From positions 64,001 through 128,000 of IMG/VR virus record IMGVR_UViG_3300042997_002652: a stretch of DNA of 64,000 bases. One strand, given 5' to 3'. The position numbers were made by a program, and so were the translations under genes. Under the pieces are notes generated by a model that worked only from the letters and a program-made list of their open reading frames with translations, had not been told where the DNA came from and made no database searches. This document shows positions 5,576-45,204 of the stretch, one piece after another. This DNA comes from a virus. Its lineage: Duplodnaviria > Caudoviricetes. Each line of letters begins with the position of its first letter. Position 1 is the first letter of the stretch.

Positions 5576-6160
5576 TTATATCTGCTCTGATGGTAATGCT
5601 GGTTGATCCATATCTTCTTGTTCAGAATCTTCTATTTTTGACGCATCTTTGTCTAAATCTTCGTTATATGCATCTTCAATATCTGCTAAGTCAATAGTGC
5701 TATCTGCTAAGTCAATAGATCCCTCTTTAATAGAATCCATTAGTGCTAAAGGTATTTCTATTTTTACGAACCAAACTTTTCTTTCTTTCATCTTGGGATA
5801 ATTACCGCCCGGGACCAAGTCTTCATAGTCTCTTACTTCAACTGGAACTTTTATTTCAGATTTAGCAAATTCTACTTTGCATCCAATCTTTAATAATCTT
5901 ACAGCACCTCTGGGATCAGGCATCATTTTGTACGGCCACATGAAAATGCAAGTTGCTGTGTATCTTCCTACATCAGGACCTTGAACTAACTCACCGTTAA
6001 TCCAATTTTTAAATGCATAAACATCAGCATCATCTATAACTCTTTCATAGTCTAACAAAGTGGACATTGTGCCGTCACTAGTGTATATACCTTTTACAGT
6101 ATCTACGATACTAATAAAGTTAATGGTGTCAAAGAATTTATCTGCGGTTTTTGTTTTCAT
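5576..6160 (-). CDS. Hypothetical late protein
   Basis: ORF track starts at 6175; a likelier start is ATG 6160 (MKTKTADK), 5 nt after ATAAATA. Confidence 0.6.
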   Translation of the reverse strand: MKTKTADKFFDTINFISIVDTVKGIYTSDGTMSTLLDYERVIDDADVYAFKNWINGELVQGPDVGRYTATCIFMWPYKMMPDPRGAVRLLKIGCKVEFAKSEIKVPVEVRDYEDLVPGGNYPKMKERKVWFVKIEIPLALMDSIKEGSIDLADSTIDLADIEDAYNEDLDKDASKIEDSEQEDMDQPALPSEQI

Positions 6161-6165
6161 ATACT

Positions 6166-6172
6166 TATTTAT
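6166..6172 (-). promoter_or_regulatory. T4-gp55-type late promoter motif (A/C)TAAATA (representative site)
   Basis: Same heptamer upstream of late genes at 1235, 11791, 16864, 20587, 21098, 21930, 23978, 27654, 29547, 31863, 37142, 37708, 39450, 41571, 42507, 43008, 45192 and 48429 (minus) and 27716, 31921 and 48471 (plus). Confidence 0.85.
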
Positions 6173-6326
6173 CACTTATTATAAAACACAACGGTAAAAA
6201 TACTTAATCGGAACATTCATATATTTATCATAAGCTAACTACTTTTAATAGTACAGTCTTACGCGCATATTACCTACTTAAATATTAATGAAGCATAGCT
6301 TCATGTAAAACAAAAGGAGAACACAC

Positions 6327-7118
6327 TTGAGCAAAAGAAAAACCGGTGCATTACGAAAGAAAGATCCAAGATTCACTAGACAAGAAATGAACTCGTATGA
6401 TGATAGTAAAACATTCTATACTAAAGAATCTAAAACAGTGATAGATTTTAATCAAGCTCAGCAAAAACAAAAACCCCGCAGAAAAATTGAACTTATTCCA
6501 AAAAGCGTAAACCAAGAAAAATATATTTTATCACTTACTGATCCAGAAAAAGATGTAGTTATCTCTTCAGGACCAGCAGGTACAGGTAAAACTTATCTAG
6601 CGGTATTAGCTGCTATACAAGCATTACGAGACGGGGAATGCGAAAAGATAATATTGACGAGGCCGGCGGTATCAGTAGACGATGAAGATCATGGATTCTT
6701 ACCAGGAGACTTAAATCAGAAGATGGAACCATGGGTGCGTCCTTTATATGATGTTCTCAATGAATTTTATAGTGCAACAGAATTAAAGTATATGTTAGAC
6801 GAACATGTGATAGAAATTACACCACTTGGTTTTTGTCGAGGCAGAACTTTTAAAAATAGTTGGATTATTGTGGATGAAAGCCAGAATAGCACACCCGTTC
6901 AACTCAAGATGTTATTAACTAGAATAGGCGAAGGTAGTAAGATTATCATTACAGGCGACATTGAACAAACAGATCGCCAAACATCTCAAAACGGCCTACT
7001 AGATTTAGTAACACGAGTAGAAAAATGTGCAGTGCCTGGAATGACTGTCTGCAAATTTGACACTAAAGATATAAGGAGGCATAAGATTATAGAACATATA
7101 CTTAAGATGTACTCATAA
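6327..7118 (+). CDS. phoH: PhoH-family ATPase
   Basis: GPAGTGKTYLA, LTRPAV, GFLPGDLNQK, RGRTF, DESQN, GDIEQTD; TTG start after AAGGAG. Confidence 0.95.
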   Translation: MSKRKTGALRKKDPRFTRQEMNSYDDSKTFYTKESKTVIDFNQAQQKQKPRRKIELIPKSVNQEKYILSLTDPEKDVVISSGPAGTGKTYLAVLAAIQALRDGECEKIILTRPAVSVDDEDHGFLPGDLNQKMEPWVRPLYDVLNEFYSATELKYMLDEHVIEITPLGFCRGRTFKNSWIIVDESQNSTPVQLKMLLTRIGEGSKIIITGDIEQTDRQTSQNGLLDLVTRVEKCAVPGMTVCKFDTKDIRRHKIIEHILKMYS

Positions 7119-39468: not shown

Positions 39469-40167
39469 CTAAACGAACTGAGTGTAGTACTGCTCTAAAC
39501 GTTTGAACCATTCGTTAACATAGTGGTCATACTCTATACCTTCTATAATAAATTCTTGATACTCGTTGTCTTTAGTACACATAAGGATAACTCCCTTGCG
39601 TATGTTAGTGTTAAACATTTCATTATGTGCTGATCCGTATGCAGCTAATTGGATAAAATAATCTTCAATCCATTCACGTTTCTTGGCTTTATTAGCTTGT
39701 TTAAAGTCCATGATAGCTTCTTGATTATCATGAACTCCTGCTAAGTCAGTAGTACCTGCATACATTTCTGGAAAATAAAGACTGGCTTCAGTAGCCCAAA
39801 ATTCATTACATTTAGACAAACCTTGTTCAATAATAGACTGAGCCATTAAATGACTTTGTTGACTATAGGGGTTGGAGCCAGGATCACCGGTAGCACCAAG
39901 CTTTACATAATTCTCTAACCACTTGTGCATACGAGTACCGCGACCAGCAGCTTCGGTAGTTATAGCTTGTGCTTGTTTATGACCTACACGGTTACGCCAG
40001 TTTTGTAATGCTTTTTTTGCTTCTTCAGGTTTAGTAGCGTCTAAAATAGTTGTTACAGAGGGGACAGCGAATCCGTCGGGAGTTATATACTTTCTAGCTC
40101 CGTTTAGCGTTTCTCTTTTTAGTTCTTTATAGTTAAATTTGTTAGGATTGTACATTGGGTTCATCAA
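39469..40167 (-). CDS. PD-(D/E)xK exonuclease
   Basis: PSVTTIL, GTRMH, YAGTTD, IMDFKQ, QLAAY. Confidence 0.88.
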   Translation of the reverse strand: MMNPMYNPNKFNYKELKRETLNGARKYITPDGFAVPSVTTILDATKPEEAKKALQNWRNRVGHKQAQAITTEAAGRGTRMHKWLENYVKLGATGDPGSNPYSQQSHLMAQSIIEQGLSKCNEFWATEASLYFPEMYAGTTDLAGVHDNQEAIMDFKQANKAKKREWIEDYFIQLAAYGSAHNEMFNTNIRKGVILMCTKDNEYQEFIIEGIEYDHYVNEWFKRLEQYYTQFV

Positions 40168-40484
40168 ATTGTAAAACTCTCACCACAGCCGCATCGGGCT
40201 TTTTCATTCGGGTTTGTAAATTCAAATCCTTCGTTAAAATCTAATTTCTTATAATCTATTGCTAGACCAGAAACATAGACAAGTGATTTTTCAGTTATAA
40301 AAACAGAAAAGGTTTCAAACTTAAATTCATGATCAGTTGAATCAGCTACATCAACGAATTCTAAGACATAAGAAAATCCACTACATCCTGTGGATTTTAC
40401 ACCTATTCTTATACCGAGGCCTGAACCTCTTTTCTCTAGTTGTGATTTTACTCTGTCTGTCGCAGTATCGGATAATTTAATCAT
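40164..40484 (-). CDS. iscA: IscA/HesB A-type Fe-S carrier
   Basis: GVKSTGCSGFSY; C-terminal FTNPNEKARCGCGESF. Confidence 0.93.
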   Translation of the reverse strand: MIKLSDTATDRVKSQLEKRGSGLGIRIGVKSTGCSGFSYVLEFVDVADSTDHEFKFETFSVFITEKSLVYVSGLAIDYKKLDFNEGFEFTNPNEKARCGCGESFTI

Positions 40485-40527: not shown

Positions 40528-40857
40528 CTATTTCATTGCGCTTTTAGCCATTTGAGCTACAGTTTTTTCTTGTTCGGATTCTTGATTGGGGTTTTCTGAA
40601 TCATCAGATTGTCCTTTGAAAACAACTTTATCGCCTTGTATATTGGTAATAACTTGTTTTAAAGGAGGAACTTGTATCATGTTGTACAAGTCAGTTACAT
40701 CTAGGATTATATCATATTCTTGAAAATAATCTAATAACTGATCTGTAGTCATACCAAAATTTAATTTGTTATTTTCCAAATCAGTTTTTAGTTGGTCGGT
40801 TACCGCAACAAGTTTTGCGCTAAGACCTGGGTCTGTTTCAAGTTCAAAAAGACGCAT
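40528..40857 (-). CDS. Hypothetical late protein
   Basis: MRLFE|L N-terminus. Confidence 0.6.
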   Translation of the reverse strand: MRLFELETDPGLSAKLVAVTDQLKTDLENNKLNFGMTTDQLLDYFQEYDIILDVTDLYNMIQVPPLKQVITNIQGDKVVFKGQSDDSENPNQESEQEKTVAQMAKSAMK

Positions 40858-41546
40858 TATCTTTTTGCTCTACCTACTCCGCCTACAGCAGCTTGTTCAG
40901 GTTCTTCAATGTCCAAATCCATGTCAATATCAGCACCGTCATCCATACCAAGATCATCTGCTGGCGCTAATTCATCCATACTTTGATCAGGTGCAGCAAA
41001 TGAATCCATTCCACCTTGACCAGTGATTGTACCTAATGCTCCTTGTAAAGAAGTTTTAGTTGTTAACAAAGCATCATTTAAGGTTTGTAAAGAACTGCTA
41101 GCTTGATCATTGAACTGAGTGCTTTCATTTGCACCAATTTCAGATTGAATGCTGCTTACTAATGCAGGAAGTTCTTTAACCAACATATCGTTAACATCTT
41201 CGTACATCTTTTGTACAGTATCAATCATGTCTTGCGCAGCTAAGATTACTTGTGACTTTTCAACTTCTTCATTTTCAAAAACAATACGAGGACTAGGTCT
41301 GTTAAGTAAATCAATGTAATGAGAATTCAATGCTTGTTCCATGAAAACAAGTTTCATGTAGCTTGGGGAAGTTTGATTTTTATAGAAATCAGCAGCTTGC
41401 TTAGATTCTTTAATAAGTGAAGATACTTTAGTCAACATAGTTTTTGTTTTTATCTTATCCAAAGAGGATACATCAAAGTTGACACTAAAGCTTTCTTTTA
41501 GTGCTGTTTTAGCATAATTCTTGTTTTCTAAGTCATTTAGTTTCAT
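40857..41546 (-). CDS. Hypothetical late protein, possibly prohead core
   Basis: Helical with acidic tail; late promoter at 41571-41577. Confidence 0.6.
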   Translation of the reverse strand: MKLNDLENKNYAKTALKESFSVNFDVSSLDKIKTKTMLTKVSSLIKESKQAADFYKNQTSPSYMKLVFMEQALNSHYIDLLNRPSPRIVFENEEVEKSQVILAAQDMIDTVQKMYEDVNDMLVKELPALVSSIQSEIGANESTQFNDQASSSLQTLNDALLTTKTSLQGALGTITGQGGMDSFAAPDQSMDELAPADDLGMDDGADIDMDLDIEEPEQAAVGGVGRAKR

Positions 41547-41566: not shown

Positions 41567-42067
41567 TTAGTATTTATCTTTTCTCGCTAGATTAGCAGTG
41601 TTAAACTTTTTAGTTTGCCACTCTTTAGAAATATTTATATATCTATTTAGTTGTTTAAGCAGTATTTTTTTCTTTAAGTTATCTTCTTCTATCTTAGTAA
41701 CATAGATATCGCGGAATTTATCATCTTTAGTACTGTTAAGAATCTTGCTTTTTTGTAATAAGTCTATTTCTAAACTACTTAACTTAAAGTCCAATTGTTC
41801 AATATTCTTACATTCCATTGCTTTTTTCAATTCTTTGAACACGCACCAAGTAACTGCGGTTTTTAAGGTACTGAATATTTTTTCTTGGTCATTATCATCT
41901 ATTAATAATCTATAATGGTTGTCTTTTTTAAGTGCTGCGTATTTTCCAAATAATATATAACTGTTACTATCTATGGGTAATACTATCATGTTCATAGTTT
42001 TATTGTTTTTATCAAGTATTTGGTTTTCTAAAAACTTTTCAACTTTAATCTGTTTGTTTTTCTTCAT
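41567..42067 (-). CDS. Hypothetical protein
   Basis: ORF track. Confidence 0.6.
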   Translation of the reverse strand: MKKNKQIKVEKFLENQILDKNNKTMNMIVLPIDSNSYILFGKYAALKKDNHYRLLIDDNDQEKIFSTLKTAVTWCVFKELKKAMECKNIEQLDFKLSSLEIDLLQKSKILNSTKDDKFRDIYVTKIEEDNLKKKILLKQLNRYINISKEWQTKKFNTANLARKDKY

Positions 42068-43047: not shown

Positions 43048-44901
43048 TTATTTGTTAAAATGGGCAGCTCCAAAACGCTGTCTGTCTACTATTTTAACTA
43101 AACCTGAATCAGTAGGAAATACGAATCCTTCTCCGCCTTTTTGCCCACCTGACGACTGTTCAAAGCCTTGAACTTGGTTTTCAAGTTGATTGGATACATT
43201 AACTTTTAGTTTGTATATTGCATTCCACACTTTGACAAGAGCATTCAATCCTTCTGCGTTTTGCTGTAAATAACCAGTACCGTCAGTTCCTACTAAGAAG
43301 TTATACTGTGATTTACTGATATTTTGAGATAACCATGGTACTAACTTATCGTTAGTTTGCTTGGTTATTTTATGATTCATGTATTTCTTTAATGCTTCAC
43401 GCGCAACGCTACTAAGTCCGCTTAAAAAGTCGTCTATAACTTTACTGTTTGTTGATAACACGCTTTCAGCATCATTAATTAGTTTAGCAGGAGGCTTAAT
43501 ATTGAATGTAACTCCGGCAGAAGCAGGTATCAAAGCTACATTAGATTTATTCATTGCTGGCTCACCGCGCCATGGTTTGTTATCAAACTCGTGAACGATT
43601 AAGAAGCCTACTTTTCCTTGAAGTTGTTTACCAAGATCAGACTCAACTGGTATGCGATACTCTACAGTAACCGGTTTAAACACAAAGTATCCGTTTTGTG
43701 GTTTGGGATTAATAGCCATTAAATCACTTTTAAATAAACCAGTAGTTCCAGATACAGCTTGCTTTAGTCCGGGCCATAATAAATCAATCTTTTCGTATAA
43801 GTCGTTTCTATTTGCGCCGCGCTGTTGATCATATTCAACCCATTCTTCGGGGCTAGTAGGATACACACCTTTGTTTGGCATGTACTTGTCAGTAACAACA
43901 AATCTACCGTCAGGTAAGTTACCAAAGTATAATGCTATCCCGCCGTCCCATTTAATACTACCAGATTCTGGACTACTAATAGCTTGTTTGAGTGCATTTA
44001 AATATTGTTTTGCACTGTCGCCACCGTCAAAAATAGCATCTTCAGGATGAGGTATTCTAGGTCCTTTAGCTTCTTCAGTAATAAAAGAATTTTCTACAAC
44101 TAAATTTCTAAACTTTGTTATGATATCGTATGCGCTTTCGTTAGCAGTATCGTTAAACTTGGGAGGTGTTATGCCACTTCTTGCTGCATATTCTTCAAAG
44201 TCTTTTAATTTTTGTTGTTTGTTGGGATCATTTTTTAGTTTCTTATAGATGTTTTCTACTGAACTCATATCATCAAGTGTACCATCTTTACCAAACAACA
44301 GTTTAGTAGCTACTTCTGGATCTAGTGTTACTAGTTCTCCGGTAGCTCTGTCAACTACGCCTTTGCCACTCAAACGCAATCCTTGAGGATGTTCACTAGT
44401 GATCGTGCCTTTAGCTACGCTGTTTAATGCTACTTCTCTAAATACACCTTTGTATTCGCTAGGGCTTCTCATACCTCCGCTAAGCAACCATGTTTCCCAT
44501 TCAAGATTGTTTAAAAACATAAAATCTGTTTGAACAAACCCTTTTTCAAAATTGCCTTCTATTGGTGTTGCAAAGTGTACAGATATACCAGACTTTTTTA
44601 CAAAGTCTTTTGGATCAAGATTATTTTGCGTAGCCCATGATTTTAGTTTGCTTTCTAGCTCTGCTTTACTTACTTCATTCGCATTTACTGCTAAGTCTAG
44701 ATCACCGCTAGTAGATTTTCTACCAGTAGAACCCAACCATTTAGCGGGTAAACCATCTTTAGCTTTTTCTTTAGTTAAATCTAATCCAGTAATACTTTCT
44801 AACCAATTAATAGTAGGCGCAACTTCATTCTGATTTATACGTCTAGTTAGCTCAGTACCGTCTTGTTGTTTAAAGATGTTTCCGCCTTCAGATATAAACA
44901 C
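43048..44901 (-). CDS. Fusion of Pol-beta-superfamily nucleotidyltransferase and ATP-dependent ligase-like (KxDG) domain
   Basis: N-domain LGSTGRKSTSGDLDLAV...VQTDF; C-domain SIKWDG...GGEGFVF...LVKIVDR; GTG start. Confidence 0.7.
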   Translation of the reverse strand: MFISEGGNIFKQQDGTELTRRINQNEVAPTINWLESITGLDLTKEKAKDGLPAKWLGSTGRKSTSGDLDLAVNANEVSKAELESKLKSWATQNNLDPKDFVKKSGISVHFATPIEGNFEKGFVQTDFMFLNNLEWETWLLSGGMRSPSEYKGVFREVALNSVAKGTITSEHPQGLRLSGKGVVDRATGELVTLDPEVATKLLFGKDGTLDDMSSVENIYKKLKNDPNKQQKLKDFEEYAARSGITPPKFNDTANESAYDIITKFRNLVVENSFITEEAKGPRIPHPEDAIFDGGDSAKQYLNALKQAISSPESGSIKWDGGIALYFGNLPDGRFVVTDKYMPNKGVYPTSPEEWVEYDQQRGANRNDLYEKIDLLWPGLKQAVSGTTGLFKSDLMAINPKPQNGYFVFKPVTVEYRIPVESDLGKQLQGKVGFLIVHEFDNKPWRGEPAMNKSNVALIPASAGVTFNIKPPAKLINDAESVLSTNSKVIDDFLSGLSSVAREALKKYMNHKITKQTNDKLVPWLSQNISKSQYNFLVGTDGTGYLQQNAEGLNALVKVWNAIYKLKVNVSNQLENQVQGFEQSSGGQKGGEGFVFPTDSGLVKIVDRQRFGAAHFNK

Positions 44902-44925
44902 TATTATCTACTTCCTTATTAAATT

Positions 44926-45174
44926 TTAATTGTCTTCATCTTTTTTTCTTAAAGACTTAGAAAATCTTTCTTGGTCTCGACCCTTAATAGCACTTAGCAG
45001 TTTTCTTTCTAGTAGCTCAGCTTTTTCAGAGGAATAATGCTTTTTCATCAATTCTAACAGATTGATAGCACTTGAAATAACGTTGTTAGCACGGTTTTCA
45101 ATAAGAAGATTAACATCCTTATTGTTGCCTATACTTTCTAGTTCTTCTAAGAGACTGCGCGTTTTTTTCTGCAT
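44926..45174 (-). CDS. Hypothetical late protein
   Basis: ORF track; late promoter at 45192-45198. Confidence 0.65.
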   Translation of the reverse strand: MQKKTRSLLEELESIGNNKDVNLLIENRANNVISSAINLLELMKKHYSSEKAELLERKLLSAIKGRDQERFSKSLRKKDEDN

Positions 45175-45204
45175 AGCAATAACCTTTATTATATTTATCT
45201 TAGA

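Follow-up and report, generated by a model that had tools for sequence, protein, structure and literature searches.

A putative head-packaged polyprotein joining a mini family X polymerase-like domain to a ligase-like DUF6267 domain in a giant T4-like phage

Repair pairs made of a family X polymerase (PolX) and a ligase, and the phage T4 cargo proteins that carry a capsid-targeting sequence (CTS), are both known kinds of system, and the gene studied here would combine the two. It lies in a 64,000-nucleotide stretch of DNA (the window), positions 64001-128000 of the 267-kb, 76% complete virus record IMGVR_UViG_3300042997_002652, whose source is a giant uncultured T4-like phage, and its protein consists of an N-terminal polymerase-like and a C-terminal ligase-like domain. 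Among the described systems, PgVPolX of Phaeocystis globosa virus 16T is a PolX-ligase fusion that carries out base excision repair in vitro, filling and sealing the repair intermediates with a Pol beta-like core and a ligase domain in one polypeptide (PMC5537341). PgVPolX retains the whole Pol beta-like core, including lyase activity, together with a recognizable NAD+-dependent ligase domain; its source is a giant virus that infects a eukaryotic alga, and neither protease sites nor packaging are described for it. The phage protein, in contrast, has the palm and thumb of the polymerase only, a ligase-like half in no known family by sequence, and a prohead-protease motif between the halves. The Pol X of African swine fever virus (ASFV; 174 amino acids) is another family X polymerase reduced to a minimum, lacking both the 8-kDa and the fingers domain, and it teams with the viral ligase AsfvLIG in viral DNA repair. 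In this case, however, the virus is a eukaryotic one, polymerase and ligase are made as separate proteins, and AsfvLIG belongs to the classical ATP-dependent DNA ligases and has an OB domain. Both ASFV enzymes are virion-borne.

T4 provides the model for the delivery part. Its prohead protease gp21 cleaves after L/I-x-E, and the propeptides removed are 7 to 65 amino acids long (7 in Alt, 10 in the internal proteins IPI-IPIII; PMC9026906). The phage protein resembles this cargo in its L/I-x-E sites and short N-terminal propeptide, in the gp21-type protease gene of its genome and in its probable late expression, and injection of the enzymes with the DNA, as in T4, would complete the parallel; T4 cargo proteins are single proteins, whereas the protein described here has a putative internal cut site between two enzymes and a leader of five residues. 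A further comparison is with the polyvalent proteins (PMC5512222) that phages and conjugative elements encode, effector enzymes of variable multidomain make-up that are predicted to accompany the DNA; one of their domains, ART-PolyVal, is found in one relative of our protein. In the available text of that survey, the Pol beta nucleotidyltransferases come from Firmicute elements and are minimal versions with four strands, the polyvalent proteins described include neither a PolX-like domain nor DUF6267, and processing is assigned to embedded metallopeptidases, in contrast to the prohead protease that we propose here. More widely, the available parts of the Aravind-laboratory surveys describe neither a phage PolX nor a DUF6267 ligase-like domain.

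The gene and its ribosome-binding site are located as follows.

43048..44901, minus strand: whole open reading frame (ORF), 617 amino acids (P0001), GTG start; sole Pfam match DUF6267 at residues 284-616
44911..44917, minus strand: ribosome-binding site AAGGAAG, 9 nucleotides 5' of the GTG (sequence)

The DUF6267 match has an E value of 4e-22, no Pfam family covers the first 270 residues, and the only PHROGs match is phrog_455 of unknown function. We consider it roughly 45% probable that the protein is a head-loaded, protease-cut and injected two-enzyme polyprotein that fills and seals DNA, most likely the incoming phage DNA. From the folds, catalytic motifs, conserved cut-site motifs, protease gene, late-promoter-like motif and modular architecture observed in the phage and its relatives, we infer a course of cleavage, packaging, substrate choice and activity in which the late polyprotein would be cut by the phage's own gp21-type prohead protease after E5 and E276, both enzymes would reside in the head and enter the cell along with the DNA, the mini-PolX would fill short gaps, and the ligase-like enzyme would seal the nick in a duplex, likeliest that of the incoming phage DNA, before expression of the phage genes begins.

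The first-pass annotation of this DNA had proposed a Pol-beta-superfamily nucleotidyltransferase fused to a KxDG ligase-superfamily domain, and both confident structure models and fold searches agree with this two-domain reading. Each motif that it had named is present in the 617-residue ORF at the place given for it: GSTGRKSTSGDLD at residues 57-69, VQTDF at 123-127, KWDG at 317-320, GEGFV at 590-594 and LVKIVDR at 601-607, with the proposed cut sites FISE/GG at residues 2-7 and LVVENSFITE/EA at 267-278. The residues D67, D69, D126, K317, D319, G320, E591, G592 and K603 are invariant among 74-80 relatives with identities down to ~25%, and D393 and Y415 of the C domain were likewise counted invariant to ~25% identity. 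Because the catalytic residues are invariant across these relatives, and because the pattern F[ILV][ST]E is rare in the proteome, the motifs are not explained by chance.

The N-terminal domain contains the following features.

44152..44886, minus strand: mini family X polymerase-like domain, residues 6-250, palm and thumb (model confidence 93.4; Foldseek, VIA and Atlas searches)
44695..44733, minus strand: GS-x8-D-x-D catalytic loop (G57...D67, D69); G60, D67 and D69 invariant in 80 sequences
44521..44535, minus strand: VQTDF with the third catalytic aspartate, D126; Q124 and D126 invariant in 80 sequences

The model of this domain was built from 80 sequences and has a mean predicted local distance difference test score (pLDDT) of 93.4. 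In a Foldseek search, a check proposed for both domains in the first-pass annotation, the PDB matches at a probability of ~1.0 were all family X polymerases (Thermus PolX, Pol beta, Pol lambda, Pol mu and TdT). A VIA-wide structure search, independent of Foldseek, placed family X polymerases in its top nine rows. Pol beta was aligned to the model with a Z score of 10.1 over 164 residues (root-mean-square deviation 3.1), model residues 11-216 covering residues 139-335 of Pol beta and with them the palm and thumb, and ASFV Pol X reached a Z score of 8.9 with 152 of 176 residues aligned. Other enzymes of the Pol beta superfamily (TUTases, CD-NTases, OAS and CCA-adding enzymes) scored at most 7.1 over ~85-100 residues of the palm only, the CCA-adding enzymes no more than ~4.4-4.5. 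Neighbors of the domain in the ESM Atlas include Pol beta palm/thumb clusters, and in one structurally close cluster 13% of the members carry PF14792 (Pfam DNA_pol_B_palm). At the sequence level, the domain has no match to the Pfam DNA_pol_B_palm or thumb families at E values up to 1, and phmmer and profile searches with both domains against PDB sequences returned nothing meaningful. In the model, only ~20 residues precede the palm, and the 8-kDa lyase and helix-hairpin-helix fingers are absent, as they are from ASFV Pol X. The domain contains a Pol beta palm with GS...DxD and the third aspartate, and a thumb following the palm, both features of family X polymerases; as modeled, it represents an ASFV-type mini-PolX reduced to palm and thumb.

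The C-terminal domain begins directly after the linker and extends to the end of the protein.

43051..44073, minus strand: DUF6267 domain, residues 277-617, ligase-superfamily nucleotidyltransferase fold (model pLDDT 93.6; VIA-wide search; Atlas PF09414)
44038..44061, minus strand: PRIPHPED, family-specific conserved motif at the N terminus of the domain; R282, H285, P286, E287 and D288 invariant (alignment A1)
43942..43953, minus strand: motif I KWDG with K317, the predicted nucleotidyl-accepting lysine; K, D and G invariant in 74 sequences
43717..43731, minus strand: strand resembling motif III and containing D393; conservation of G-D-L 90% or more; placed by motif order and secondary structure
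43657..43665, minus strand: motif IIIa-like strand with the invariant aromatic residue Y415 (alignment and model)
43180..43488, minus strand: insert of ~100 amino acids and six helices, residues ~472-574, between the IIIa-side strands and motif IV (model secondary structure; helical-bundle rows in the VIA-wide search)
43120..43134, minus strand: motif IV GEGFV (E591, G592), invariant
43081..43101, minus strand: motif V-like LVKIVDR; K603 invariant, R607 at least 90% conserved

The model was built from 74 sequences (mean pLDDT 93.6). In the VIA-wide search of 48,161 chains, the 20 best rows were all RNA or DNA ligases, as were 25 of the best 27, with Z scores of 5.0-7.2 and 142-192 residues aligned (REL1 7.2, NgrRnl 7.2, T4 Rnl1 6.6, Sulfolobus DNA ligase 6.3, Rnl2 6.3, T4 DNA ligase 5.8 and ASFV ligase 5.6), and the nearest named family in the Atlas was PF09414 RNA_ligase (cluster TM 0.51). 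Judged by sequence order and modeled secondary structure, motif I and the putative motifs III, IIIa, IV and V appear to be colinear, with D393, Y415, E591-G592 and K603 in the expected order on beta strands. The ligase assignment is made because the VIA-wide list consists almost exclusively of ligases and the apparently colinear motifs are invariant, not because of the size of the Z scores. We class DUF6267 as a divergent branch within the superfamily of covalent nucleotidyltransferases, with a helical insert in place of an OB domain, and assign it to no named ligase family. The nick-sealing RNA ligases of the Rnl2/REL1 and Rnl5 (NgrRnl) types, the best structural matches at Z scores of 6.3-7.2, have a nucleotidyltransferase domain with motifs I-V, to which the motif set of DUF6267 would correspond, use an accessory domain to bind duplexes, and likewise lack an OB domain. 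They differ from DUF6267 in that its helical module, possibly a duplex-binding one to judge from the model, is inserted within the nucleotidyltransferase domain and not appended to it, that motif V is altered and an invariant PRIPHPED added, and that there is no sequence-profile similarity to T4 Rnl2.

Two putative cleavage sites flank the polymerase-like domain.

44887..44901, minus strand: five-residue leader M/V-F-I-S-E with a putative gp21-type cut after E5 (FISE/GG); [LIVMF]-x-E stands directly ahead of GG in 150 of 156 N domains
44074..44103, minus strand: linker LVVENSFITE, predicted disordered (pLDDT 35-40), with a putative gp21-type cut after E276 and possibly after E271 too; E276 at least 90% conserved

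The first-pass annotation had likened these glutamates to T4 gp21-type protease sites, and the likeness is borne out by their strong conservation and by their match to the T4-like capsid-targeting leaders and gp21-type protease of the same genome. FISE stands just ahead of GGN, with which the N domain conservedly begins, and FITE of the linker, which stands five residues ahead of the C domain, resembles the ends of the genome's own CTS leaders (..EFITE, ..DFITE). The pattern F[ILV][ST]E has 14 copies in the proteome of 85,542 residues; two are in this protein, at its two domain starts, and four others end N-terminal CTS-like leaders of other proteins, the fifth N-terminal copy being the protein's own. 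The gp21-type prohead protease (Peptidase_S77, PF03420, E 2.2e-28) is encoded at G000:C1:235205-235675, and at least seven proteins of the genome have leaders closely resembling the T4 capsid-targeting sequence (MRAKEFLTE, MRATDFITE, MRAGEFITE, etc.). Among the relatives, [LIVMF]-x-E is found in 129 of 129 C domains, 1-14 residues (mode 5) ahead of R-x-x-HPED, and the same cut motif parts the further domains of longer proteins. Stand-alone C domains begin with T4-CTS-like leaders of 10-11 residues, MKTYIDFLVE/A and MKLDFLDYIFE/A. The leader of T4 itself is MKTYQEFIAE. In T4, leader positions 4 and 7 matter for targeting and positions 8 and 10 for processing (PMC9026906). If the T4 leader is as given, the stand-alone leaders would, by sequence comparison, share both the targeting and the processing positions.

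Relatives of the protein are numerous, with 2,098 found by a word-indexed search, 820 clusters at 50% identity by an exhaustive HMMER search, and 571 IMG/VR stretches encoding one. They belong to aquatic T4-like and jumbo phages, including the cultured cyanophages Syn9, S-PM2, Syn19 and P-RSM4 and the Methylophilales phage Melnitz. Their architectures are modular: the N domain alone (~240 amino acids), the C domain alone (~355), N-C (615-670), C-N, longer proteins of 800-1,300 amino acids, and split genes. Either domain can be fused to CTP_transf_like (very frequently), NT5C, DUF5661, Cu/Zn superoxide dismutase (SOD), amidoligase, the Thoeris inhibitor Tad3, or ART-PolyVal with sigma70 region 4. 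Such a set of partners is characteristic of injected cargo of the polyvalent kind (PMC5512222, PMC9503650). The phage PA5oct has, within a block of virion proteins, a protein homologous to the N domain (hhalign probability 99.2) whose annotation reads "structural protein, ESI-MS/MS".

Several observations weigh against a packaged pair that fills and seals DNA, and those on the ligase half concern the strength of the assignment. In the Foldseek check, the matches of the C domain were enriched in ligases as the first-pass annotation would have it, but at E values of 0.13 or worse, with none at E ≤0.001, and the assignment depends on middling Z scores, on the model and on motifs. Motif V reads K-x-x-x-R and not K-x-K, the OB domain and motif VI are absent, the protein ending 10 residues past motif V, and in hhalign comparisons the C-domain alignment reached a probability of 0.2% with the PF01068 ligase that the phage itself encodes and of 0.1% with T4 Rnl2. 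No Pfam ligase family matches the protein. Membership of the classical ATP-dependent DNA ligases (PF01068 plus OB) is ruled out by the missing OB domain and the lack of a Pfam or hhalign match, and sequence membership of the Rnl2-type RNA ligases (PF09414) by the lack of a Pfam match and the hhalign probability of 0.1%, the likeness being structural only. As a separate candidate, the conserved downstream protein of 151 amino acids was considered as an OB partner acting in trans and rejected, its Atlas model being of low confidence (pLDDT 0.36) and without usable neighbors.

The same structural matches bear on a proposal of the first-pass annotation, an injected kit for RNA repair or tailing in which the nucleotidyltransferase would rebuild RNA 3' ends and the ligase reseal tRNAs cut by anticodon nucleases. 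The best C-domain matches are RNA ligases (REL1, NgrRnl, T4 Rnl1, Rnl2 and tRNA ligase), the nearest named Atlas family is RNA_ligase, the OB domain is missing as in RNA ligases, and the NT5C-type HAD phosphatases fused in some relatives could heal 3' ends; DNA ligases, however, lie within 1-2 Z units of the RNA ligases, a closeness that tells against an RNA and a DNA assignment alike. The analogy drawn to tRNA repair (T4 Pnk/Rnl1 against PrrC, and CCA-adding enzymes) was not supported, as the N domain is specifically family X-like with a thumb, while CCA-adding and poly(A)/TUTase enzymes score far lower and over the palm only. In the protein and the 28 long relatives scanned, a polynucleotide kinase, 2H or cyclic phosphodiesterase domain was not seen. 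Because the fold is PolX-specific and a kinase or cyclic phosphodiesterase partner is missing, filling and sealing of DNA (or of a duplex) fits better than tRNA repair; DNA is the more likely substrate of the pair, and we regard the RNA kit as distinctly improbable.

A second group of observations concerns whether the two domains act together. Fusion to unrelated cargo can reflect co-delivery and not a common pathway, and at 30 of 75 informative related loci the C domain has no N domain nearby; the pair is therefore not obligate. A complete base-excision-repair set was sought in the 76% complete record and rejected, since a glycosylase, DenV and Xth were not found and there was only a sub-threshold AP_endonuc_2-like match, although in an incomplete record such absences count for little. 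The domains could be joined merely for common delivery and, once cleaved apart, act on separate targets, for example in nucleotidylation of host proteins or small molecules or, with the NMNAT-like partner, in NAD+ or nucleotide-signal chemistry. This would accommodate the fused Cu/Zn SOD, ART-PolyVal with sigma70 region 4, Tad3, amidoligase, NT5C and, very often, HxGH CTP_transf_like domains, the loci with the C domain only, and a linker that is itself a cut site, so that covalent linkage is not needed for function. Against it, N and C are by far each other's commonest partners, in both orders (117 N-then-C and 13 C-N architectures among 267 proteins), and occur together at the remaining 45 of the 75 loci, adjacent when split, and PolX with ligase is a recognized functional pair (PMC5537341). 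We hold such a concatenation of independent cargo to be rather improbable.

The last group concerns packaging itself and involves the surroundings of the gene, of which two features are needed here.

45192..45198, minus strand: T4-type late-promoter-like core (G)ATAAATA, GATAAATA, 18 nucleotides 5' of the gene for an 82-amino-acid protein
44926..45174, minus strand: gene for the 82-amino-acid protein, phrog_11854 "virion structural protein", preceding the module in 62 of 80 related loci

The gene stands directly after those for a primase and a DnaB-like helicase and ahead of an exonuclease gene, and the order primase, helicase, p82, optional N domain, C domain, p151, p229, exonuclease is strongly conserved in the 80 related IMG/VR loci. 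The leader has 5 residues, compared with 8-10 in the other CTS leaders of the genome. In the cyanophages, T4-GC71, the cluster of the DUF6267 gene of S-PM2, is absent from the cyanophage virion protein table, and the DUF6267 protein of Syn9, gp183, has no L-x-E leader. These points are what one would expect if the same two enzymes were never packaged and instead filled and sealed DNA in the cytoplasm during replication and repair (lagging-strand gaps, recombination intermediates and damage), L-x-E then being a structural or interaction motif. The primase and helicase upstream and the Cas4-like exonuclease downstream would be fitting neighbors, and this order is kept in most of the 80 loci as well as in Melnitz, Syn9 and S-PM2. 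The genome, however, already has a canonical ATP-dependent DNA ligase (PF01068, 443 amino acids; G000:C1:27713-28258, minus strand; L003:1165-2496) outside the window, a late-promoter-like motif separates the helicase gene from the module, and E276 is at least 90% conserved despite the predicted disorder. The 10-11-residue leaders of the stand-alone relatives mimic the T4 CTS, and the ART-PolyVal, Tad3 and SOD fusions and the PA5oct virion record indicate delivered cargo. A purely cytoplasmic role thus appears unlikely to us. Because of the PF01068 gene, DUF6267 is not the replicative ligase here, and the idea that it supplies the missing replicative ligase of marine T4-like phages was rejected for this phage; an NAD+ ligase or Rnl2 was not found in the genome.

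The first-pass annotation had stated that the gene follows a late promoter. The core is indeed near, but it stands 18 nucleotides before the upstream 82-amino-acid gene and not before the gene itself: the exact TATAAATA is absent ahead of the gene, and the looser ATAAATA lies upstream of the preceding gene instead. The gap between the two genes is 24 nucleotides; they are probably co-transcribed, and late expression of the polyprotein is plausible. In the whole genome, 56 of the 110 copies of ATAAATA lie 5-60 nucleotides upstream of an ORF start on the same strand, compared with ~3.7 expected (15-fold enrichment), and the core can be used for mapping the late genes of the phage.

If the reading of a packaged PolX-ligase pair is true, enzymologists and tool builders would gain a further ligase family together with a minimal PolX of bacteriophage origin, and the T4 capsid-targeting idea would widen to multi-enzyme polyproteins. 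Phages may then mend their own genome on arrival, which would matter for the decay of viruses in sunlit water and for how they withstand host defenses that nick DNA. As some relatives are in cultured phages, the idea of DUF6267 and PolX is directly testable. A broader version, in which T4-like aquatic phages load a protease-separable kit of mini-PolX, a new ligase branch perhaps pre-charged with nucleotide, often an NMNAT-like transferase, HAD phosphatase and SOD, and inject it to mend nicks and gaps within seconds of entry, is a tentative proposal that we consider possible with the odds against it. In that version, no earlier DNA repair system of bacteriophages would have been virion-borne, and DUF6267 would be a new family of polynucleotide ligases in which an internal helical duplex clamp replaces the OB domain.

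Some of the components named in this kit were observed in the genome and in the relatives. An Fe/Mn superoxide dismutase with the leader MRDIINLLE and an NT5C-type HAD nucleotidase with the leader MKIKELFE are encoded at G000:C1:4159-4713 and 6103-6684, and the tagged SOD and NT5C types recur as fusions (NT5C; Cu/Zn SOD) in the relatives of the protein. A CTP_transf_like protein of 422 amino acids with the motif PGGYHPYHAGH is encoded at 3-671 of the window (minus strand), continuing to G000:C1:63403 (L013:511-1779, minus strand). It closely resembles the third domain that follows the C-N pair in relatives of ~900 amino acids (P0029, P0034 and P0040), and is here a separate gene ~43 kb away without a CTS-like leader. 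We take its motif to resemble those of NadM-type nicotinamide mononucleotide (NMN) adenylyltransferases. Among the longest relatives, P0231 (1,089 amino acids) combines CTP_transf_like, DUF6267, ART-PolyVal and sigma-70 region 4, and P0217 combines DUF5661, the Thoeris inhibitor Tad3 and a PolX-like domain.

In Syn9, the next gene after gp183, the DUF6267 gene, is gp184 (L005 5902-7050), whose protein is cytidylyltransferase-like and begins with MKKFSAFLSE, a near-perfect T4-type capsid-targeting leader. The family of gp184, T4-GC190, has 25 peptide counts in the virions of S-SM1, and the available text of the cyanophage virion-protein paper apparently makes no mention of the leader; our literature search found no paper on DUF6267 or Syn9 gp183. 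By BLAST, the similarity between gp184 and the third domain of the long relatives is weak and centers around the HxGH motif.

Small genes near the module also carry CTS-like leaders or L-x-E sites (MRLFELE, MKLNDLE, ..VEKFLE and ..SLLEE), at 40528-40857, 40857-41546, 41567-42067 and 44926-45174, all on the minus strand. Two of these small neighbors match PHROGs labeled "virion structural protein", and together with p151 they form a module kept in 60-70 of the 80 related loci. Farther downstream, at 39469-40484 (minus strand), an IscA/HesB-type Fe-S biosynthesis protein overlaps the Cas4-like exonuclease (phrog_298), and the pair recurs 3' of the module in many related loci.

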